DNA from: Octopus sinensis
Taxonomy: Eukaryota
NCBI RefSeq assembly: GCF_006345805.1
Contig: NC_043026.1
Span: forward strand, 7,316,001 to 7,380,000
Length of the DNA: 64,000 nt
Direction: 5' to 3'
This document shows positions 22,451-64,000 of the stretch, one piece after another (positions within the stretch are counted from its first letter, which is position 1; every line of letters begins with the position of its first letter). Below the pieces are notes generated by a model. The model was not told the DNA's origin and searched no databases. It saw only the letters and a list, made by a program, of their open reading frames with translations. A program made the position numbers and the translations under genes.

Positions 22451-22557
22451 AAGCTGGCCTCCATGCTGATGGCACGTTAAAAGCACCATTTGAGCGTGAT
22501 CGTTACCTGCATCGCCATACTAGCACTTGTGCTGCTGGCACGTGAAAAAACATTCAA

Positions 22558-22944
22558 GTTAGATGCCATGAGAATTTCACCAAAAGGAAGAGAGTATGGG
22601 AGTTTGAGAGCGTCTTCCCTTCCAAAGTGGATCAGTTCGAATTTGTCTTCGTTTAGTAACATGTTGTTCTTTTCCGCCCATTGGACAACAGCCAGTAGGT
22701 CTGACTGAAGGCTTATCCGGTCATCCACGCCATTGATGACTTTCTGGAGCTTGGAATCATCAGCGAAGATTCTGATGTTACTGTGTTTGATGATATCAGT
22801 GATGTCATTAATGTAGATGATGAAGAGAAGTGGGCCCAACACAGTGCCTTGTGGGACACCACTACTGACTTTGGTTGGGCTGGATTTGACTCCTTCGACT
22901 ACAATATGTTGGGTTCTGTTTGAAAGGAAGCACTTGATCCACTT
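22558..22944 (-). pseudogene. LINE reverse transcriptase fragment (CR1/L2 group)
   Basis: WIKCFLSNRTQ..SGVPQGTVLGPLLFIIYINDI..IFADDSKL..LQSDL..W..N.MLLN..K. Confidence 0.93.
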
Positions 22945-23429
22945 CTGCTGAATGCAGGTCATTGATTGGTTGAAATTATTGAAATACGACAACTTTAAAA
23001 CGAAATAACTTCATAAATATAAGCTTCTCTCAAAAACGCTAAGAGTAAAAGATGTTTTATATGACACATTCTACCAGTGTCCGAAGTTTGAAAGTGTCGG
23101 TCAAAAGGAAAATATCCAACAAACTTCGTACCACGTCTATAACACCTGCCCCTATATAGTAAACAAAACACGTGAACACGTGCTGGGTGTATTCATTCTG
23201 ATACAGGAGAACTTCCAACTAGAAGCAATCAAGAAACCCCAAAGATCCACCCTGGCCTCCACGGGCGCAAACCTTCGTCAAACTGTTCTCTAATTCCCAA
23301 ATGAAACTTCGTTTACGTTGACGATTTTCACAACAGCCATACATAGCTCTTGACGAAAATCGTCTCGGGAGAACGCATCCGTCTGCACCCTCAATAACAG
23401 GCGGAAGTTGGTCGATTCCATGACCGCAG

Positions 23430-32021: not shown

Positions 32022-32866
32022 TAGGGTGCAATGGGTAAATTGTCGCGATTTTGTATTTTAAATTTCACACATGCACATTGTTTGTTTTTGATTTTGTCGA
32101 CTACACAGTATAGTAGGGTCAGTTGGGCACCGTCTGTGAGGAAAACAGCACCATGATGCAAATTTACTCTGCCAGACATTTGGAAATGACATGCTGTACT
32201 GCTTGGCATCAGAGCGTTTGGGTGTCAATCTGAGGACACGTAAAGAGAGCGATAAAAATCAAACATCCAGTCAACATCATGGTGTTTGTAGTGATCACTA
32301 GTGATGGTGACATTATGCATCGATTCATCTTCCCACATGGCCTCAGACTCAACACGGAGGCCTACATCAAGTGCCTGGAGGAAGTAGTGCTGCCCTGGGT
32401 CAAGAGAGTGGCTGCTGGTAAACCCTATGTCTGGCAACAGGACTCTGCACCATGTTACATAAGCAGGAGAACCCAGTCATGGCTGTCAGACAATTTCTGC
32501 GACCACGTCACCCCAAACATCTGGCCACCTAACTCCCTAAACAACAAAACCCCTGATTATTATGTGTGGGGCACAGTTGATCAAGAGACCAACAAAACTC
32601 CTCGTAACACCAAAGGTGAACTGAAGGCAAGGATTATGGCAGCATTTCACCAACTGTAAAAAGGAGACCATCCTGAAACTTGCAGGATATTCCAAAATCG
32701 TCTGGAGGCCATGGTTGAAGCCAATGGCAATTTTATTGAATAAATTTACTCTTTAGTATTTCAAGATATTTTTATGTAGTTTTGATAAATGTATCTGTTA
32801 AAATGAGATGTCTGTGTTATTTTCATTTTTGTGTAATTTAGACAACAATTTATTCACCACACCCTC
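32022..32866 (+). mobile_element. Internally deleted Tc1/mariner element, DD37D (maT-type) transposase relic (ORF 32279-32659)
   Basis: YVWQQDSAP...WPPNS...DYYVW with 37 residues between the two Asp; imperfect TIRs agggtg..gggtaaattgt / acaatttattc..caccct. Confidence 0.85.
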
Positions 32867-37220: not shown

Positions 37221-37440
37221 TATATAATTTACAAAACAGGATATTCCATAAAGTAAAATATAAACATAGAAACATAGAAACCAGTCCTTTCAGTGCATGG
37301 CACCTTGGGAAGTTGTCTTATACCATACCATAGTCTCAGGTCAATCAGAGCTTTATGAGTGGATTTGGTAGGCAGAAACTGAAAGAAGCCTTGTGTGTAT
37401 GTGTACACACATGCACATGTGCATGGTATGTAGGCCTTTG

Positions 37441-37703
37441 GGGTAGAAAGGGCTCCTTAGCCGTAGTGAAGGCAATCTATCTAGGGAGATAACCTTACAA
37501 TAAATCACTGGGTCCGTAGCTTAGAAATACTGGGTTGACGTCCAGCGGGAACAGCTTTGTTTCATGGAGGAGGAAAGATCTTCTTTAGTACTTGGTTGTA
37601 CAATGCTTTCCAATGTGTGTAGTAGTGGCGCGCACACACATTATTAGCCATTTGAAAAGACTATGAAAGTCTCGACCACGGTCGAACAATGATGATGATG
37701 ATG
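37441..37703 (+). mobile_element. Young ~260 bp non-autonomous retroposon, copy 1
   Basis: TSD aggcctttg (37432-37440 / 37704-37712), (ATG)n tail, near-identical to 40933-41180. Confidence 0.9.
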
Positions 37704-38009
37704 AGGCCTTTGGAAGTATGCTGTGCATGAGAAGACCTGGCAGGACAAGTGAGACCATAACCCATGGCCTCTACCTGGGATGTAGCCAGCCCACTTATGC
37801 ATATCTTTCCTTCTTGGGACACAAAACTCTGCTTGCGAAGACCTGTTGAGGCAAGTGAAATCGAAATTGCTCAAAATCAATGGAAATATTTTTGCATTCT
37901 CTTCTAATAAGAAACATTCTGTCATTCACTCAAAGACTCAAAGACACTTTTGCTGCCTGCCAAGTAATTTATAAAAATTGCTAGCAAGATATATATATAT
38001 GTGTGTGTG

Positions 38010-40754: not shown

Positions 40755-41460
40755 CATCATCATCATCATCATCATCATCGTTTAACGTCCGCTTTCCATG
40801 CTAGCATGGGTTGGACGATTTGACTGAGGTCTGGCGAACCAGATGGCTGCACCAGGCTCCAATCTGATCTGGCAGAGTTTCTACAGCTGGATACACTTCC
40901 TAACGCCAACCACTCCGAGAGTGTAGTGGGTGGGGTAGAAAGGGCTCCTTAGCCGTAGTGAAGGCAATCTATCTAGGGAGATAACCTTACAATAAATCAC
41001 TGGGTCCGTAGCTTAGAAATACTGGGTTGACGTCCAGCGGGAACAACTTTGTTTCATGGAGGAGGAAAGACCTTCTTTAGTACTTGATTGTACAATGCTT
41101 TCCAATGTGTGTAGTAGCGCACACATTATTAGCCATTTGAAAAGACTATGAAAGTCTCGACCACGGTCGAACAATGATGATGTAGTGGGTGCTTTTATGT
41201 GCCACCAGCACGAGGGCCAATCAGGCAGTACTGGCAACGGCCACACTCAAATGGTGCTTTTTATGTGCCACCTGCACAGGAGCCAGTCCAGCAGCACTGG
41301 CAACGACTTTGCTTGAATGATTTTTCACGTAGCACTAGCGTAAGTACTAGTAAGGCGACACAGGTAACGATCACGCTCGAATGGTGTTTTTATGTGCTAC
41401 CGGCACGGAGGCCCGCTTGTTGCCCTGGCAACGATTTCACTCGTATGGTACTCTTAGCGT
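40755..41460 (-). mobile_element. Family C SINE interrupted by the 260 bp retroposon
   Basis: Body resumes after TSD tgtagtgggtg. Confidence 0.85.
40933..41180 (+). mobile_element. Young ~260 bp non-autonomous retroposon, copy 2
   Basis: 11 bp TSD tgtagtgggtg (40922-40932 / 41181-41191); same first nucleotide as copy 1. Confidence 0.9.
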
Positions 41461-46587: not shown

Positions 46588-47878
46588 CGAGGGACGTTCA
46601 ATAAGTAATGCCTCTGACCCACTTGTAGTTGTTTGATCAAGCTGAAATTTTGCATGTGCAATCATTTATATCTCTATAGATTACGTGGCAAATTACAGCT
46701 CTGAACTAATTGTGGTTTCTGATTTACAGGTGTTTGAACTGAGTCAAGTGTGAAATGGAGCCTGTTGAGTGTCGAGCAGTGATCCAGGTTTTGTATTTGA
46801 AAGGACACACACCACGGGAGACTTTTGATGAAATGAAAGTAACTTATGGTGATGATGCCCCATCATATGACCTTGTGAAACGCTGGCATCGTGAATTCAA
46901 ACATAGTCGGAACTCTGTGGAAACAGCCCCAGATCTGGTCACCCTCCTTCTGCCATTGATGAGGCATCTGTCCGTCAAGTTGAGGCTACCATTTTGGAAG
47001 ATCGACGCATAACTATTCGCCAAATAGCCCATGAGGTCAAGATTAGTACCGGGTCTGTGGAAACTATCATTCATGACCATTTGCATATGCAAAAGGTGTC
47101 TGCCAGATGGATTCCCAGGTTGCTCACACCTTTCCAGAAGCAAGAATGCGTCGAGTGCTCGAGGATGAATTTGGAGATGTGCTAAGAAGATGAGTCAAAA
47201 TTTTTCAAAAGACTGATTACACAGGATGAAACCTGGGTCCATCACCAAGATCCAGAGACCAAAGCCCAGTCAATGCAGCGGAAGCACCGTGATTCACCTC
47301 CTCCAAAGAAGGCAAGGGTGCTGCCCTCCACTGGCAAGGTCATGCTCACAGTCTTCTGGGACCAGGACAGAGTAGTGATGACAGATTTCCTGGCAAAGGG
47401 TACCACAATTACAGGAGCCTATTATGCTTCACTTTTGAGGAAATTAAGAGAAGCTATGAAAATCAAGAGGCGGGGCAAGATCAGCAAAGGCATCCTCCTC
47501 CTGCAGGACAACGCTCCGGTCCACAACTCGATGGTTGCCAGATCAGAAGCACAGGTGTGCGGCTATGAACTCCTCCCCCAACCCTCTACTCTCTTGACCT
47601 TGCACCCTCGGATTTTCACCTCTTCCCAGCCATGAAGTTGTTTTTGAAAGGAAAGCGTTTCCCAGATGATGCAGCCTTGATTTCTGAAGTCAGGTCGTGG
47701 TTGGAGGACCAAGCTGGTGTCTTCTACAAAAACGGTCTCCAGAGCTGCATCAAACAATGGGAGAAATGCGTAACTCTGGGTGGTTCCTATGTAGAAAAAG
47801 ACTAATAACTGTGCCAAGTTTCGTTGCTCTACTGCTATGGGAAGTGGGTCAGGGGCATTACTTATTGAACGCCCCTCG
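46588..47878 (+). mobile_element. Full-length mariner element (~1.29 kb), defective transposase 46755-47805
   Basis: TA-flanked TIRs cgagggacgttcaataagtaatgcc / ggcattacttattgaacgcccctcg; WIPRLL, ITQDETWVHH, LLLQDNAPVH, frameshifted DLAPSDFHLF; one stop and two frameshifts. Confidence 0.95.
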
Positions 47879-52400: not shown

Positions 52401-53129
52401 ATGTAAAGGTTTTTTTATTTTCATTTCTGTATCGTTAGAAGCTTTCCTCATTTCTTATTCTATTAATGGGAAACAAATTAACCTCAAATTCAGTTGACTT
52501 AACCAATTTTATGTCAGTCTCAGTAAAGATATTTAGAAGTGAAAACATTCCAAAACAAAAACTTAAAAACCATTACAAAAGTGGAAGATCCATGTCTGAA
52601 ATCACGCGTAAATATACACAGACACGCACCTATACGTGTATACATACATACATCTGTGTTAACTACATCACAAAGATGGAACCATGTATCTTTGTTGGAA
52701 ACAGGGTCCCTCCTCAGTGGAAGATTTATAATAGTCAAAAAAATAGAAGACACCATACATACGTACATACATATATACAAACATGCATTCATACATACAT
52801 AAATAAATGCATACATATATACATACATACACACATACATACATATATACATACATACATGCATGCATACGTACATACATACATATATACATTCATACAT
52901 ACATACATATATACATACATATATACATAAAAACATACATACATTACATACATACATGCATTCATACATACATGAATGCATATATACATATTCTTATATT
53001 TCACTCTGCAGTTGTAAAACGTGACGCAGTGGATAATGTAGTGCAGCTTTCGTTGTAGGGAAAACACCAGATGGTCATGGTTGGAATGACAGCGGCAAAA
53101 ATAAACGCAAACTATATCACAGGAGTTAT

Positions 53130-56100
53130 TACATGTATGTATGTGTGTATGTATGAATGTATGTATATATGTATGAATGAATGTATAACATGCATGCATG
53201 TATGCATGTGTGAATGTATGTATATATGTGTGAATGTATGTATGAATGTGTGAATGTATGTATGTATACATGCATGCATGCATGTATGTGTAAATGTATG
53301 TATGTATGTATGAATGTATGTATGTATGTATGTGTGAATGTATGTATGTATGTATGGATGTATGTATGTATGTATGAATGTATGTATACATGCATGCATG
53401 CATGTATGTGTGAATGTATGTATGTATGTGTGAATGTATGTATGTGTGAATGTATGTATGTATGTGTGAATGTATGTATGTGTGAATGTATGTATGTATG
53501 TATGAATGTATGTGTGAATGTATGTATGTATGTATGAATGTGTGAATGTATGTATGTATGTATGAATGTATGTGTGAATGTATGTATGTATGTGTGAATG
53601 TATGAATGTATGTGTGAATGTATGTATGTGTGAATGTATGTATGTGTGAATGTATGTATGTATGTATGAATGTATGTATGTATGTGTGAATGTATGTATG
53701 TGTGAATGTATGTATGTATGTGCGAATGTATGTATGTGTGAATGTATGTATGTATGTATGAATGTATGTATACATGCATGCATGCATGTATATGCGAATG
53801 TATGTATGTATGTATGTGTGAATGTATGTATGTATGTGTGAATGTATGAATGTATGTATGAATGTATGTATGTATGTATGAATGTATGTATGTATGTGTG
53901 AATGTATGTATGTATGTGTGAATGTATGTATGTATGTGTGAATGTATGTATGTATGTGTGAATGTATGAATGTATGTATGTATGAATGTATGTATGTATG
54001 TATGTATGAATGTATGTATTTGTGAATGTATGTATGTATGTGTGAATGTATGTATGTATGTATGTATGAATGTATGTATGTATGTATGAATATATGTATT
54101 TGTGAATGTATGTATGTATGTGTGAATGTATGTATGAATTTATGTGAATGTATGTGTGAATGTATGTATGTATGTGTGAATGTATGTATGTATATATGTA
54201 TGTATGTGTGAATGTATGTATGTATGTATGTATGTATGTATGTATGTATGTATGTATGTATGTATGTATGTATGTATGTATGTATGTGTGAATGTATGTA
54301 TGTATGTATGTGTGAATGTATGTATGTATGTGTGAATGTATGTGTGAATGTATGTATGTATGTATGTGTGAATGTATGTGTGAATGTATGTATGTATGTG
54401 TGAATGTATGTATGTATGTGTGAATGTATGTGTGAATGTATGTATGTATGTATGTATGTATGTATGTATGTATGTATGTATGTATGTATGTATGTGTGAA
54501 TGTATGTATGTATGTATGTGTGAATCTATGTATGTATGTATGAATGTATGTATGTATGTGTGAATGTATGTATGTATGTGTGAATGTATGTATGTATGTA
54601 TGTGTGAATGTATGTATGTATGTGTGAATGTATGTATGTATGTGTGAATGTATGTGTGAATGTATGTATGTATGTGTAAATGTATGTATGTATGTATGTA
54701 TGAATGTAGGTGTGAATGTATGTATGTATGTGTGAATGTATGTGTGAATGTATGAATGTATGCGTGAATGTATGTATGTATGTGTGAATGTATGAATGTA
54801 TGTGTGAATGTATGAATGTATGTGTGAATGTATGAATGTATGTGTGAATGTATGTATGTATGTGTGAATGTATGTATGTATGTATGTATGTGTGTGTGTG
54901 TGTATGTATGTATGTATGAATGTATGTATGTATGAATGTATGTGTGAATGTATGTATGTATGTGTGAATGTATGTATGTATGTATGTATGAATGTATGTA
55001 TGTATGAATGTATGTATGTATGAATGTATGTATGTGTGAATGTATGTATGTATGTGTGAATGTATGTATGCATGTGTGAATGTATGTATGAATGTATGTA
55101 TGTATGTATGTATGAATGTATGTATGAATGTATGTATGTATGTATGTATGAATGTATGTATGTGTGAATGTATGTATGTATGAATGTATGTGAATGTATG
55201 TGTGAATGTATGTGTGAATGTATGTATGTAAGTCTGAATGAATGTATGTATGTATGTGTGAATGTATGTGTGAATATATGTATGAATGTATGTATGAATG
55301 TATGTGTGAATGTATATATGTATGAATGTATGTATGTATGTATGTATGTATGAATGTATGTATGTGTGAATGTATGTATGTATGTGTGAATGTATGTATG
55401 TATGTATGTATGTATGTCTGTATGTGTGAATGTATGTATGTATGTGTGTATGTATGTATGTGTGAATGTATGTATGTATGTGTGAATGTATGTATGTGTG
55501 AATGTATGTATGTATATGTGAATGTATGAATGTATGTGTGAATGTATGTATGTATGTGTGAATGTATGTATGTATGTGTGAATGTATGAATGTATGTATG
55601 TATGTATGAATGTATGTATGAATGTATGTATGTATGTGTGAATGTATGTATGTATGAATGTATGTATGTGTGAATGTATGTATGTATGTGTGAATGTATG
55701 TATGTACATGTGAATGTATGTATGTATGTGTGAATGTATGTATGTATGAATGTATGTATGAATGTATGTGTGAATGTATGTATGTATGTGTGAATGTATG
55801 TATGTATGTATGAATGTAGTATGTATGTATGTATGAATGTATGATGTGTGAATGTATGTATGTATGTATGAATGTATGTAGTATTGTGAATGTATGTAGT
55901 ATGTGGATGTATGGATGTATGTATGTATGTATGTGTGAATGTATGTATGTATGAATGTATGTGAATGTATGTGTGAATGTATGTGTGAATGTATGTATGT
56001 ATATGTGAATGTATGAATGTATGTGTGAATGTATGTATCTATGTGTGAATGTATGTATGTATGATTGAATGTATGTATGTGTGAATATATGTATGAATGT

Positions 56101-59100
56101 ATGTGTGAATGTATGTGTGAATGTATGTATGTATGAATGTATGTATGTATGTATGAATGTATAAATGTATGTGTGAATGTAAGTATGTATGTGTGAATGT
56201 ATGTGTGAATGTATGAATGTATGTGTGAATGTATGTATGTGTGAATGTATGTATGTATGTATGCATGAATGTATAAATGTATGTGTGAATGTATGTATGT
56301 ATGTATGTGTGAATGTATGTGTGAATGTATGAATGTATGTGTGAATGTATGTATGTATGAATGTATGAATGTATGTATATATGTATGTATGTATATATGT
56401 ATGTATGTATGAATGTATGTATGTATGTATGTATGTATGTATGTATGTATGTGTGAATGTATGTGTGAATGTATGTATATATTTGTGTATGTATGTATGT
56501 GTGAATGTATGTATGTATGTGTGAATGTATGTATGTATGAATGTATGTATGTATGTATGAATGTATGTATGTATGTGTGAATGTATGTAAGTATGTGTGA
56601 ATGTATGTGTGAATGTATGAATGTGTGTGTGAATGTATGTATGTATGAATGTAAGTATGAATGTATGTATGTATGTGTGAATGTATGTATGTATGTATGT
56701 ATGTATGTATGTATGTATGTATGTGTGAATATATGTAAGTATGTGTGAATGTATGTGTGAATGTATGTATGTATGAATGTATGTGTGAATGTATGTATGT
56801 ATGTGTGAATGTATGTATGTATGTATGTATGTATGTGTGAATGTATGTATGTATGTGTGAATGTATGTATGTATGTATGTATGTATGTATGTATGTGTGA
56901 ATGTATGTATGTATGTGTGAATGTATGAATGTATGTGTGAATGTATGAATGTATGTGTGAATGTATGTATGTATGTATGTATGTATGTGTGAATGTATGT
57001 GTGAATGTATGTATGTATGTGTGAATGTATGTATGTATGTGTGAATGTATGTATGTATGTATGTATGTATGTATGTATGTATGTATGTATGTGTGAATGT
57101 ATGAATGTATGTGTGAATGTATGTATGTATGTGTGAATGTATGTATGTGTAATGTGTTGAATGTATGGTTTGATGTGTGATGTATGAATGTATGTGTGAA
57201 TGTATGAATGTATGTGTGAATGTATGTATGTATGTGGGTATGTATTTTGTGAATGTATGAATGTATGTGTAATGTATGAAGTATGTGGAATGTATGTATG
57301 TATGTGTGAATGTGAGTATGTATGTATGTATGTGTGAATGTATGAATGTATGTGTGAATGTATGAAGTATGTGGAATGTATGAATGTATGTGTGAATGTA
57401 TGTATGTATGTGTGAATGTATGTATGTATGTGTGGATGTATGTATGTATGTGTGAATGTATGTATGTATGTGTGAATGTATGTATGTATGTGTGAATGTA
57501 TGAATGTATGTATGAATGTATGAATGTATGTGTGAATGTATGTATGTATGTGTGAATGTATGAATGTATGTGTGAATGTATGAATGTATGTGTGAATGTA
57601 TGAATGTATGTGTGAATGTATGAATGTATGTGTGAATGTATGTATGTATGTGTGGATGTATGTATGTATGTGTGGATGTATGTATGTATGTGTGAATGTA
57701 TGAATGTATGTGTGAATGTATGATTGTATGTGTGAATGGATGAATGTATGTGTGAATGTATGAATGTATGTGTGAATGTATGTATGTATGTGTGAATTAT
57801 GAATGTATGTGTGATGTATGAATGTAGGTGTGAATGTATGAATGTATGTGTGAATCTTTGAATGTATGTGTGTGAATGTATGTATGTATGTGTGGATGTA
57901 TGTATGTATGTGTGAATGTATGTATGTATGTGTGAATGTATGAATGTATGTGTGAATGTATGAATGTATGTGTGAATGTATGAATGTATGTGTCAATGTA
58001 TGAATGTATGTGTGAATGTATGAATGTATGTGTGAATGTATGTATGTATGTGTGGATGTATGTATGTATGTGTGAATGTATGAATGTATGTGTGAATGTA
58101 TGAATGTATGTGTGAATGTATGAATGTATGTGTGAATGTATGAATGTATGTGTGAATGTATGTATGTATGTGTGAATGTATGAATGTATGTGTGAATGTA
58201 TGAATGTATGTGTGAATGTATGTGTGAATGTATGAATGTATGTGTGAATGTATGAATGTATGTGTGAATGTATGTATGTATGTGTGGATGTATGTATGTA
58301 TGTGTGAATGTATGAATGTATGTGTGAATGTATGAATGTATGTGTGGTTGTATGAATGTATGTGTGAATGTATGTATGTATGTGTGAATGTATGTATGTA
58401 TGTGTGGATGTATGTATGTGTGAATGTATGAATGTATGTGTGAATGTATGAATGTATGTGTGAATGTATGTATGTATGTGTGAATGTATGTATGTATGTG
58501 TGAATGTATGAATGTATGTGTGAATGTATGAATGTATGTGTGTGAATGTATGTATGTATGTGTGAATGTATGTATGTATGTGTGGATGTATGTATGTATG
58601 TGTGAATGTATGTATGTATGTGTGAATGTATGTTATGTATGTATGGGTGAATGTATGAATGTATGTGTGAATGTATGAATGTATGTGAATGTATGAATGT
58701 ATGTGTGAAAGTATGAATGTATTGTGTGTGAAGTATGAATGTATGTGTGAATGTATGATGTATGTGTGTGAATGTATGTATGTATGTGTGAATGTATGTA
58801 TGTATTGTGAGTATGTATGTATGTGTGAATGAATGTTATGATGTGTGAATGTATGTATGTATGTGTAATGTATGAATGTATGTGTGAATGTATGAATGTA
58901 TGTGTGAATGTATGAATGTAGGGTGTGAAAGTATGAATGTATGTGTGAATGTATAATGTATGGTGAATGTATGAATGTATGTGTGAATGTATGTATGTAT
59001 GTGTGAATGTATGTATGTATGTATGAATGTATGTATGTATGTGTGGATGTATGTATGTATGTGTGAATGTATGTATGTGTGAATGTATGTATGTATGTGT

Positions 59101-62100
59101 GAATGTATGAATGTATGTGTGAATGTATGAATGTATGTGTGAATGTATGAATGTATGTGTGAATGTATGTATGTATGTGTGAATGTATGTATGTATGTGT
59201 GAATGTATGTATGTATGTGTGAATGTATGAATGTATGTGTGAATGTATGAATGTATGTGTGAATGTATGAATGTATGTGTGAAAGTATGAAGGTATGTGT
59301 GAATGTATGAATGTATGTGTGAATGTATGAATGTATGTGTGAATGTATGAATGTATGTGTGGATGTATGTATGTATGTGTGAATGTATGAATATATGTGT
59401 GAATGTATGAATGTATGTGTGAATGTATGAATGTATGTGTGAATGTATGTATGTATGTGTGGATGTATATATGTATGTGTGAATGTATGTATGTATGTGT
59501 GAATGTATGAATGTATGTGTGAATGTATGTATGTATGTGTGGATGTATATATGTATGTGTGAATGTATGAATGTATGTGTGAATGTATTTATGTATGTGT
59601 GAATGTATGAATATATGTGTGAATGTATGAATGTATCTGTGAATGTATGAATGTATGTGTAAATGTATGAATGTATGTCTGAATGTATGTATGTATGTGT
59701 GGATGTATGTATGTATGTGTGAATGTATGAATCTATGTGTGAATGTATGTATGTATGTGTGGATGTATGTAGGTATGTGTGAATGTATCAATGTATGTGT
59801 GAATGTATGAATGTATGTGTGAATGTATGAATGTATGTGTGAATGTATGTATGTATGTGTGGATGTATGTATGTATGTGTGAATGTATGTATGTATGTGT
59901 GGATGTATGTATGTATGTGTGAATGTATGAATGTATGTGTGAATGTATGAATGTATGTGTGAATGTATGAATGTATGTGTGAATGTATGAATGTATGTGT
60001 GAATGTATGAATGCATGTGTGAATGTATGTATGTATGTGTGAATGTATGAATGTATGTGTGAATGTATGTATGTATGTGTGGATGTATGAATGTATGTGT
60101 GAATGTATGTATGTATGTGGGGATGTATGTATGTATGTGTGAATGTATGAATGTATGTGTGAATGTATGAATGTATGTGTGAATGTATGAATGTATGTTT
60201 GAATGTATGTATGCATGTGTGAATGTATGTATGTGTGGATGTATGTATGTATGTGTGGATGTATGTATGTATGGGTGAATGTATGAATGTATGTGTGAAT
60301 GTATGTATGTATGTGTGGATGTATGAATGTATGTGTGAATGTATGTGTGGATGTATGTATGTATGTGTGAATGTATGTATGTATGTGTGAATGTATGTAT
60401 GTGTGAATGTATGTATGTATGTGTGAATGTATGTATGTATGTGTGGATGTATGTATGTGTTTGAATGTATGTATGTATGTGTGGATGTATGTATGTATGT
60501 GCGAATGTATGAATGTATGTGTGAATATATGAATGTATGTGTGAATGTATGAATGTATGTGTGAATGTATGTATGTATGTGTGGATGTATGTATGTATGT
60601 GTGAATGTATGAATCTATGCGTGAATGTATGTATGTATGTGTGAATGTATGTATGTATGTGTGAATGTATGAATGTGTGTGTGAATGTATGTATGTATGT
60701 GTGAATGTATGAATGTATGTGTGAATGTATGTATGTGTGAATGTATGTATGTATGTGTGAATGTATGAATGTATGTATGAATGTATGAATGTATGTGTGA
60801 ATGTATGTATGTATGTATGAATGTATGAATGTATGTGTGAATGTATGAATGTATGTGTGAATGTATGTATGTATGTATGAATGCATGTATGTATGTATGT
60901 ATGTATGAATGTATGTGTCAATGTATGAATCTATGTGTGAATGTATGAATGTATGTGTGAATGTATGTATGTATGTGTGAATGTATGAATGTATGTGTGA
61001 ATGTATGTATGTATGTATGTGTGAATGTATGTATGTATGTCTGAATGTATGAATGTATGTGTGAATGTATGTATGTATGTGTGAATGTATGTATGTATGT
61101 GTGAATGTAGGTATGTATGTGTCAATGTATGAATGTATGTCTGAATGTATGAATCTATGTGTGAATGTAAGAATGTATGTGTGAATGTATGTATGTATGT
61201 ATGTGTGGATTTATGTATGTATGTGTGAATGTATGTACGTGTGAATGTATGAATCTATGTGTGAATGTATGAATGTATGTGTGAATGTATGAATCTATGT
61301 GTGAATGTATGAATGTATGTGTGAATGTATGAATGTATGTGTGAATGTATGTATGTATGTGTGGATGTATGTATGTATGTGTGAATGTATGTATGTATGT
61401 GTGAATGTATGAATGTATGTGTGAATGTATGAATGTATGTGTGAATGTATGTATGTGTGTGTGAATGTATGAATGTATGTGTGAATGTATCAATCTATGT
61501 GTGAATGTATGAAAGTATGTGTGAATGTATGAATGTATGTGTGAATGTATGTATGTGTGAATGTATGAATCTATGTGTGAATGTATGAATGTATGTGTGA
61601 ATGTATGTATGTATGTGTAGATGTATGTATGTATGTGTGAAGGTATGTATGTATGTGTGAATGTATGTATGTATGTGTGAATGTATGTATGTGTGAATGT
61701 ATGTATGTATGTGTGAATGTATGAATGTATGTGTGAATGTATGAATGTATGTGTGAATGTATGTATGTGTGTGTGAATGTATGAATGTATGTGTGAATGT
61801 ATCAATCTATGTGTGAATGTATGAAAGTATGTGTGAATGTATGAATGTATGTGTGAATGTATGTATGTGTGAATGTATGAATCTATGTGTGAATGTATGA
61901 ATGTATGTGTGAATGTATGTATGTATGTGTAGATGTATGTATGTATGTGTGAAGGTATGTATGTATGTGTGAATGTATGTATGTATGTGTGAATGTATGT
62001 ATGTGTGAATGTATGTATGTATGTGTGAATGTATGTATGTATGTGTGATTGTATGTGTGAATGTATGAATGTATGTATGTATGTATGTATGAATGTATGT

Positions 62101-64000
62101 ATGTATGTATGAATGTATGTTTGAAAGTATGTATGTATGTGTGAATGTATGTATGTATATGTGAATGTCTGTATGTATGTATGAATGTATGTGTGAATGT
62201 ACGTATGTATGTGTGAATGTGTGAATGTATGTGTGAATGTATGTATGTATGTGTGAATGTGTGAATGTATGTGTGAATGTATGTATGTATGTGTGAATGT
62301 ATGTACGTATGTATGAATGTACGTATGTATGTATGAATGTATGTATGTATGTATGTATGTGTGAATGTATGTATGTATGTATGTGTGAATGTATGTGTGA
62401 ATGTATGTATGTATGTGTGAATGTATGTATGTATGTATGAATGTATGTATGTATGAATGTATGTATGTATGTATGTATGTATGTGTGAATGTATGTATGT
62501 ATGTATGTGTGAATGTATGTGTGAATGTATGAATGTATGTGTCAATGTATGTATGTTTGTGTGAATGTATGTATGTATGTATGAATGCATGTATATATGT
62601 GTGAATGTATGTATGTATGTGTGATTGTATGTATGCATGTGTGAATGTATGTATGTATGTGTGAATGTATGTATGTATGTGTGAATGTATGTATGTATGT
62701 GTGAATGTATGAATGTATGTGTGATTGTATGTATGTATGTGTGAATGTATGAATGTATGTGTGAATGTATGTATGTATGTATACATGCATGCATGCATGT
62801 ATGTGTGAATGTATGTGTGTATGTATGAATGCATGTATGTATGTGTGTATGAATGCATGTATGTATGTATGTATGTGTGAATGTATGTATGTTTGTGTGA
62901 ATGTATGTATGTATGAATGTATGAATGTATGTGTGAATGTATGTGTGAATGTATGTATGTATGTGTGAATGTATGAATGTAAGTGTGAATGTATGAATGT
63001 ATGTTTGAATGTATGTATGAATGTATGTGTGAATGTATGTATGAATGTATGTGTGAATGTATGTATGTATGTGTGAATGTATGAATGTATGTGTGATTGT
63101 ATGTATGTATGTGTGAATGTATGTATGTATGTATGAATGTATGTATGAATGTATGTGTGAATGTATGTATGTATGTGTGAATGTATGTATGAATGTGTGA
63201 ATGTATGTATGTGTGAATGTATGAATGTATGTGTGAATGTATGTGTGAATGTAGGTATGTATGTGTGAATGTATGTATGTATGTGTGAATGTATGAATGT
63301 ATGTATGTATGTGTGAATGTATGAATGTATGTGTGAATGTTTGTATGTATGTATGTATGTATGTGTGATTGTATGTATGTATGTATGTATGTGTGAATGT
63401 ATGTATGAATGTATGTATGTATGTATGTATGTATGTATGTATGTATGTATGTATGTATGTATGTGTGAATGTATGTATGTATGTGTGAATGTATGTATGT
63501 AGGTATGTATGTATGTATGTATGTATGTATGTAGTATGTATGTATGATGTAGTGTGTGATGTATGTATGTATGTATGTATGTGTGAATGTATGTATGAAT
63601 GTATGTATGTATGTATGTATGTATGTATGTATGTATGTATGTGTGAATGTATGTATGTATGTGTGAATGTATGTATGTATGTATGTATGTATGTATGTAT
63701 GTATGTATGTATGTATGTATGTATGTATGTATGTATGTGTGAATGTATGTATGTATGTGTGAATGTATGTATGTATGTGTGAATGTATGTATGTATGTAT
63801 GTATGTATGTATGTATGTATGTATGTATGTATGTATGTATGTATGTGTGAATGTATGTATGTATGTATGTATGAATATATGTATGAATGTATGTATGTAT
63901 GTATGTATGTATGTATGTGTGAATGTATGTATGTATGTGTGAATGTATGAATGTATGTATGTATGAATGTATGTATGTATGTATGTATGTGTGAATGTAT
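53130..64000. repeat. Giant simple-sequence satellite of TATG/AATG/TG units with a 20 bp higher-order period in parts
   Basis: Direct observation; gaatgtatg(a/t)atgtatgtgt stays in register over 59100-60200. Confidence 0.98.

Follow-up and report, generated by a model that had tools for sequence, protein, structure and literature searches.

A short retroposon present twice in the 64,000-nt window of Octopus sinensis DNA analysed here raises the question of how an element without a recognisable promoter comes to have a fixed 5′ end. The original prediction held that a multi-pseudoknot leader releases the element from host transcripts by self-cleavage at G37441, the base of a stem P1 opened by a G-U pair.

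Anatomy of the retroposon and its parent LINE

The two copies (37441-37690 and 40933-41175) are 95.6% identical to each other, and each has its own TSD and (TGA)n tail, in agreement with the original prediction. Copy 1 is a bipartite non-autonomous RTE-type retroposon, the true extent of which on the forward strand is 37439-37704. Its TSD, AGGCCTTT[GG], lies at 37432-37439 and 37704-37713; the final T of the 5′ TSD doubles as the first base of the element (microhomology), and the (TGA)n tail occupies 37690-37704. Copy 2 (40931-41180, forward strand) has the same start and deletion junction and is flanked by the TSD TGTAGTGGGT[G] at 40922-40931 and 41181-41191. The host of copy 2 is another abundant interspersed repeat (window 40820-41400), which is frequent in the retrieved loci too.

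A first look at the 2.72-Gb genome gave 406 candidate matches to the element. The best 40 of these 406 are 99-100% identical, hence the family is young. The claim of a young, LINE-mobilised, RTE-linked element holds. The stretch is also present in other samples (contigs from 4 of 24 sequencing runs, which carry no information on starts or expression). A tRNA scan of the element found no tRNA, and no Pol III A or B box was found near its start with up to two mismatches allowed, as had been claimed. No Rfam family matched over the element at E ≤ 10. A tRNA- or 5S-derived Pol III SINE was considered and rejected: there is no small-RNA head with A/B or A/IE/C boxes, and the head of the element is a LINE 5′ UTR.

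The element consists of the 5′ UTR of an RTE-type LINE, through the ATG, joined to the final 24 nt of this LINE and the (TGA)n tail. The 5′ UTR part (37439-37668, forward strand), which runs from the boundary of the leader fold described below (domain 2) through the start codon, is about 97% identical to LINE loci L210-L229. No ORF is present, as predicted, but the LINE start codon is still in place at 37663-37665. The 3′ part (37669-37692, forward strand) is identical to LINE 3′ ends; it comprises the final 24 nt of the LINE ORF (codons V-S-T-T-V-E-Q-stop) and contains a short hairpin, probably the site recognised by the RT.

The parent was traced through a LINE fragment in L139, one of 20 chromosomal RT-family matches, which shares the 24-nt end and the tail of the element. 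In L139 these 24 nt are the last codons of the LINE ORF, and its homologues are single-ORF proteins of about 1045 aa. A search with an N-terminal LINE piece led to full-length copies, several with open frames above 1000 aa; L310 has one 1046-aa ORF with APE endonuclease and RT domains. In a protein tree built without named reference sequences, L310 groups with three genome rows (support 100/99), which we take to be RTE/BovB-like. Bases 1-230 of the element are LINE 5′ UTR and its 3′ end and tail are common to the LINE; therefore, judged by its sequence, the element is an internally deleted, non-coding, bipartite derivative of a LINE that is probably of the RTE type. At least six further deletion junctions were found within the same LINE family.

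Independent internal-deletion derivatives of the parent LINE, about 250-700 nt long from the domain-2 start, were observed at L281, L282, L284, L285, L293, L298, L300, L301, L303, L307, L358, L364, L366, L367, L376 and L377; several of them break at the start codon. Protein scans of a viral contig set and a genome contig set revealed no relatives. The best RT-family matches (L091-L120) are confined to small unplaced contigs; they are near-identical LINEs that differ in type from those on the chromosomes and may be DNA from a different organism that entered the assembly. Elsewhere in the window, a long strand-skewed low-complexity tandem array with 4-12-nt units and a GC skew near +1 spans 53100-64000. 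Open frames at 32234-32656 and 47186-47632 on the forward strand and at 22480-23010 on the reverse strand resemble Tc1/mariner transposase fragments and a CR1/L2-like RT fragment.

Starts of the SINE copies and the predicted leader fold

The SINE copies begin at a reproducible position, as predicted, although at T37439 and not at G37441. Among 65 distinct insertion sites, obtained from 90 loci with the best 40 matches taken per search, 51 begin at the T equivalent to 37439, 4 at G37440 and 10 are truncated. Since 60 of the 90 loci were chosen by their 5′ end, the fair figure is that from copies chosen by the 3′ end alone, 21 of 29 of which begin at this T. The start consensus is (C/A)TGGGG, upstream of the G1 of the original prediction. 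Upstream flanks are unique to each copy except for one duplicate pair. An apparent domain-1 motif (see below) upstream of SINE copy L085 proved to be a 10-nt chance match outside its TSD. In 26 copies with strict TSDs, the start T is common to the target in 16, and 10 carry non-target bases ending in T. The RNA start therefore lies at least 2 nt 5′ of G1, and cleavage at G37441 is not supported.

Covariation and models predict that domain 2 folds into a three-stem H-type pseudoknot, accompanied by a hairpin and by another pseudoknot, all on the forward strand. Stem S1 (37440-37444 with 37452-37456) would form a pseudoknot bracing the 5′ end, and stem S2 pairs 37445-37451 with 37476-37482, with one A-A mismatch in the SINE. 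In 25 hand-anchored instances, the boundaries of which were set on the S1+S2 fold and so lean towards it, 111 of 125 cells are paired in S1 and 157 of 175 in S2; Watson-Crick pairs number 78 against 64.1 in shuffles for S1 and 142 against 101.6 for S2 (0 of 20,000 shuffles), the shuffles ignoring relatedness. Hairpin P3 (37460-37462 with 37471-37473, loop 37463-37470) has near-invariant A's on both sides and a permutation p of 0.006, which becomes 0.13 once the set is thinned to 13 lineages. Hairpin P4 lies at 37483-37496 (permutation p = 0.002). The 3′ strand of the second pseudoknot, 37505-37510, pairs with the P3 loop (permutation p = 0.006, 17 instances with boundaries hand-set in the same way).

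Five helices had been proposed, and all of them can be written on the sequence. Two, P3 (element positions 20-22 with 31-33) and the loop pseudoknot (24-29 with 65-70), are supported by homologues. The helix 13-16/45-48 is at best weakly supported (p = 0.015; 0.13 thinned), and homologues do not support the helix 8-11/53-56 (p = 0.06). The proposed P1 (1-7 with 36-42) fails to covary: 84 Watson-Crick pairs compare with 86.4 in shuffles (p = 0.82), and position 7 is unpaired in 13 of 25 instances. In a plain MAFFT alignment of 16 leaders, S1+S2+P3 gave 89.5% of cells paired and a covariation of 0.298, against 70.1% and 0.175 for the five helices. MAFFT misaligned the domain-2 row L236 and a GGTCA tandem in domain 1, hence the hand-anchored counts used here and the four-sequence model of domain 1 used below.

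A metagenome scan yielded 43 loci, 11 of which contain the leader according to the covariance model R1. In the genome of the window, R1 also detected it in 5 of 20 loci that belong to more distantly related LINE families outside its training set, and the leaders found there show new pair types in S2. A search of these 20 loci against Rfam gave nothing relevant. The 5′ UTR of another distant RTE-like family (L126:1500-1600), unscored by R1 and R2, resembles the domain-2 start by eye.

In the SINE itself the stem energy sums favour the five-helix fold (−10.7 versus −8.3 kcal/mol for S1+S2), whereas the S1+S2 fold is energetically better in 21 of 25 instances. These sums, together with the A-A mismatch in S2, indicate that two folds may compete in the SINE lineage. 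In a calculation of nested folds only, the leader did not fold more stably than shuffles (z from +0.5 to +1.0). Position 37510 is G in 51 of 62 SINE copies and C in the LINE; the G lengthens a possible alternative pairing with 37450-37455 and is a possible lineage marker or fold change. In several other lineages domain 2 occurs twice in tandem (a+b). The start of domain 2 is partly duplicated in L244:60-100, and tandem 5-nt repeats lie at the 5′ edge of domain 1 in L239:40-90; these duplications suggest repeated re-priming at the 5′ junction.

An xrRNA-like domain and two classes of 5′ ends in the parent LINE

In the parent LINE, a 74-nt domain (domain 1) lies just upstream of domain 2; it is absent from the SINE and from the window. 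LINE copies chosen by protein search continue upstream of TGGGG in 18 of 19 cases, and two LINE subfamilies have exactly 77 nt in common there before they diverge. Domain 1 was located at L217:1203-1277, L239:79-150, L240:126-197, L243:31-102, L249:64-126 and L328:420-481 and, cut, in L236. Its fold predicted at the sequence level is a three-way junction of P1, P2 and P3 with one unpaired C between P2 and P3, the letters of a U.A-U triple, a PK1 of 1-3 bp and a PK2 from L3 to just 3′ of P1. A three-way junction, a junction C, a U.A-U triple, a short PK1 and a PK2 are the features described for subclass-1a xrRNAs (PMC8374639, PMC12081666, PMC5760640, PMC7749634). On alignment A5, 80 of 80 cells of the subclass-1a pairs are paired. 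L328 has C at the triple U. The likeness to flavivirus class-1 xrRNA was noted before a weak Rfam match of L240 to Flavivirus_SLIV appeared (22.9 bits against a cut-off of 54.5, E 4.8, one of 7 matches).

A subclass-1a descriptor that fixes only these feature letters, and that was written with the target known, matches domain 1 in the LINE family, L239, L240, L243 and L249. Its background was 6 unrelated matches in 2.43 Mb of real sequence (both strands) versus 5 in shuffled sequence. Applied unchanged, the descriptor matches 13 of 28 flavivirus-like 3′ UTR loci, in no case on the minus strand. A covariance model built from the four LINE sequences gave 33 matches (E ≤ 1) in 23 of the 28 viral loci, all on the plus strand, the best with a rough E-value of 4.5e-4; the model thus finds viral xrRNA positions though built from LINE copies only. 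With E 1e-7 and 5e-5 it further detects the domain in an older LINE family of the same genome, in which P2 and PK2 are altered on both sides (for PK2, in L336). Covariation among the four model sequences themselves was not significant (117 of 500 shuffles). Domain 1 is predicted to have the subclass-1a pattern, and we think it quite probable that it is Xrn1-resistant. The domain-2 covariance model had no match in the 28 flavivirus-like viral loci (best E 0.78), and pattern scans for domains 1 and 2 in viral contigs gave no match.

The older RTE-type family (L328:480-870, L336, L338, L344, L346) carries domain 1, a spacer of about 390 nt and two tandem copies of domain 2. The spacer contains an extra hairpin-rich segment just before domain 2; homology of L344 begins there, and the segment may be a third 5′ boundary.

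Genomic 5′ ends were numbered from the T of TGGGG, which places the G of PK1 at −74 and the base of domain-1 P1 at −72. Of the starts in 30 loci chosen by domain 1, 11 lie at −75 to −78 and 6 at −70 to −72, although two of these six share flanks and some loci repeat earlier ones; none lies at −79 to −91 and 13 lie further upstream (clustering p = 6e-7). In six copies, junctions between −72 and −77 are borne out by TSDs; the TSD is unclear or was not found in L281, L285, L301, L303, L315, L317 and L320. The distance at which class-1 xrRNA halts Xrn1 is given as 4 nt upstream of PK1 in PMC12081666 and as 5-6 nt before P1 in PMC5760640, so that −77/−78 equals the class-1 halt site. The genomic ends, which serve as a proxy for RNA ends, cluster 1-4 nt upstream of PK1.

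Loci chosen by domain 2 alone show the second class. Of 30 loci, 29 could be parsed, 10 with the SINE junction and 19 without it. In the latter group 9 starts lie 0-2 nt upstream of the T, 4 coincide with the domain-1 boundary, 3 are far upstream and 3 intermediate; the 67 positions beyond the 0-2-nt zone hold 3 starts against 9 inside it (p = 1e-10). At domain 2 no leftover exceeds 4 nt before the first paired G, a length reached in L370, which has the SINE junction; the same limit holds at domain 1. In this family, genomic 5′ ends cluster 1-4 nt upstream of either domain. Both classes occur within single deletion families (L307 versus L376/L377; L293/L300 versus L364), which argues that the end is set by the element and not by one host promoter.

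Three copies have TSD-flanked upstream extensions of 102, 273 and 615 nt, which show 5′ processing to be partial. Within LINE copies the leader is found intact with 70-800 nt of upstream sequence still in front of it. Two groups of loci, A (L213, L214, L216, L222, L228, L231, L234) and B (L227, L233, L297, L306), carry different host-like upstream sequence. It reaches at least 800 nt, has ragged ends, is TSD-flanked in three cases and is 5′ transduction from two master loci.

The long extensions show untrimmed RNA as a substrate, and the 5′ junctions are rich in microhomology. Both points accord with another reading, in which the structures serve the LINE protein as binding sites, or act as elements of translation, and integration itself fixes the 5′ ends: reverse transcription would end, or second-strand joining would fire, just after each structure is copied. 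The R2 protein, moreover, binds a 5′ pseudoknot (PMC6765202). However, this reading accounts neither for the xrRNA core letters of domain 1 and the match to viral xrRNA positions nor for the sharp 4-nt limit before the first paired G in both domains, and we consider it unlikely.

The sharp domain-2 ends of independent derivatives would also fit an undescribed ribozyme fold, slow or partly inhibited in its self-cleavage, with a cut 1-4 nt upstream of G37440; this would be the original prediction with another site and another fold. The G-U pair in S1 and the near-invariant unpaired A's could belong to such a fold. Six LINE clades including RTE carry 5′ ribozymes (PMC5786205, PMC6765202), and a twister is described in Perere-3 (PMC8501958). 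Against this, a single T is the only conserved base near the supposed cut, and the linkers lack a conserved unpaired C or G. The sequence upstream of domain 2 is kept in the 18 of 19 LINE copies mentioned above, tandem a+b copies persist in several lineages, and the equally sharp domain-1 ends and the 4-nt offset are left unexplained. Rfam searches at E ≤ 10 of the element, L217 and 10 homologous contigs gave no ribozyme match. Such a ribozyme therefore appears rather improbable.

The bases before the start T bear on an internal Pol II promoter over the leader, with the start at the A of CAT/CAGT and perhaps an additional RNA structure as in L1Tc Pr77. The base at −1 is A in 36 of 51 copies (p = 4e-8) and that at −2 is C in 18 of 51 (p = 0.003), which resembles the pyrimidine-purine initiator motif (Inr). 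Pr77 itself is promoter and ribozyme in one (PMC3383444). However, selection on the leader acts on pairing rather than on sequence, the domain-1 ends are at pyrimidines, and lineages differ in the four bases before PK1. G at −2, the expected trace of a copied cap, is found in 4 of 51 copies only, a weak point, and two separate promoters would be required. A promoter origin of the ends is accordingly very improbable.

Possible origin of the 5′ ends and comparison with known systems

We regard it as on balance probable, by analogy, that the fixed 5′ end of the SINE is made by a host 5′-3′ exoribonuclease stalling a few bases before the predicted domain-2 pseudoknot and not by self-cleavage. Domain 2 matches no described xrRNA class, hence its role as a roadblock rests on position and analogy. 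In the proposed sequence of events, promoterless copies would be read through from host transcripts, e.g., from introns, and the RNA would be uncapped by decapping or intron release. Xrn1 or Xrn2 would then trim it 5′-3′ up to a roadblock. The LINE protein would bind the 3′ hairpin and tail and start target-primed reverse transcription, and the 1-4 leftover bases would anneal to the target at the 5′ junction (microhomology joining). The long ragged 5′ extensions would stem from RNAs copied before trimming. An RNA trimmed to the second roadblock would be the ancestor of the SINE family, which keeps only this second one of the tandem roadblocks. A slow ribozyme, or 5′ joining guided by protein, would likewise lead to two classes of ends. 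The broader proposition, that an RTE-type LINE lineage defines and protects an uncapped 5′ end with tandem xrRNAs, first one of the subclass-1a type and then a new class represented by the SINE-head pseudoknot, has in our estimate a little under an even chance.

According to a 2021 review, viruses were the only source of characterised xrRNAs, and the same review raises the question of their presence in eukaryotic genomes (PMC8374639, section 7); the classes listed in a 2025 paper are still three, all of them viral (PMC12397905). A full-text literature search, with most subscription papers outside its reach, found no report of an xrRNA in a retrotransposon; the leader could figure under another name in the RTE 5′ UTR alignments of Kojima 2018. 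If true, stalling at these structures would mean chromosomally encoded xrRNAs and, beside promoters and ribozymes, a third route for the release of LINEs from host transcripts. It would explain the precise ends of promoterless RTE elements without a ribozyme, a question left by Kojima 2018, and would tie the RNA structure of LINEs to that of flaviviruses, through either capture or convergence. A mobile element that records the Xrn1 halt distance in its genomic 5′ ends would be a short, ready test substrate. RTE-type systems are employed for gene insertion (PMC13708176), where protection of the template-RNA 5′ end matters. Should the anatomy alone hold, the SINE would be a bipartite RTE derivative of the ordinary kind, with a conserved leader fold that is new to description.

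Bipartite non-autonomous RTE LINEs include RTESINE1/2, WALLSI3, RTE-N2_Lch and Bov-A (Kojima 2018, PMC5786205). Like them and like R2 SIDEs and NARTc, the element combines a LINE 5′ part with the LINE 3′ end by internal deletion, has a microsatellite tail and no small-RNA head, and was moved in trans. Unlike the bipartite RTE LINEs, it starts 78 nt inside the main 5′ end of its parent, at the second structural domain. The 5′ ends of the bipartite RTE elements, R2 SIDEs and NARTc have been ascribed to HDV-like ribozymes or internal promoters (PMC5786205).

HDV-like ribozymes, as in R2, L1Tc/NARTc and some RTEs, resemble the leader in being compact double pseudoknots that travel with the element and define its 5′ end, and in having a 7-bp stem that closes a 3-bp hairpin. 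They are described as cleaving just 5′ of +1, the element beginning at the first base of P1 (PMC3383444), whereas in the elements studied here 6-9 nt precede the covarying 7-bp stem, and at least 2 nt precede the originally proposed P1. The leader lacks P1.1, a downstream P2 (p = 0.84, 17 instances) and a conserved C in the last linker. The catalytic C of HDV lies in J4/2; in the leader an A, not GG, follows the stem, and the linkers of L242, L243 and L249 have no C before the A-run. An HDV-like ribozyme was thus rejected on the 51 of 65 starts 2 nt upstream of G1, a P1 that fails to covary and the absent P1.1, P2 and C. The view of the leader as a conserved multi-pseudoknot outside canonical HDV holds. 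Twister, hammerhead, pistol and hatchet were rejected by eye and because Rfam gave no match at E ≤ 10 on the element, L217 or 10 homologous contigs, a search which divergent variants can escape.

Flavivirus subclass 1a xrRNAs (MVEV, ZIKV, WNV; RF01415) share with domain 1 of the parent LINE the predicted three-way junction, the junction C, the U.A-U triple letters, a G-C PK1, a loop-to-downstream PK2 and the tandem layout; the genomic 5′ ends at domain 1, a proxy for RNA ends, fall at the halt distance. Domain 1 differs in lying in the 5′ UTR of a genomic retrotransposon and not in a viral 3′ UTR, in having two U-A core pairs where most viral matches have C-G, and in a resistance that is putative. 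Viral xrRNAs occur in tandem (PMC8374639), as do the domain-2 copies of other lineages.

Domain 2, the one present in the window, falls outside flavivirus subclass 1a. It was also compared with class 1/2 xrRNAs (three-way junction, PK1, PK2) and class 3 (stem-loop, loop pseudoknot; PMC12397905), and both assignments were rejected since the structures differ; its PK1-like partner comes after the 5′ strand of the closing stem and before the hairpin. With the SARS-CoV-2 frameshift element, a three-stem H-type pseudoknot, domain 2 shares its predicted strand order S1-S2-S1′-hairpin-S2′. It differs from that element by a far shorter S1, an extra hairpin, a second pseudoknot and a non-coding context. 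Three-stem H-type pseudoknots are described as packing in a ring-like manner (PMC8374639).
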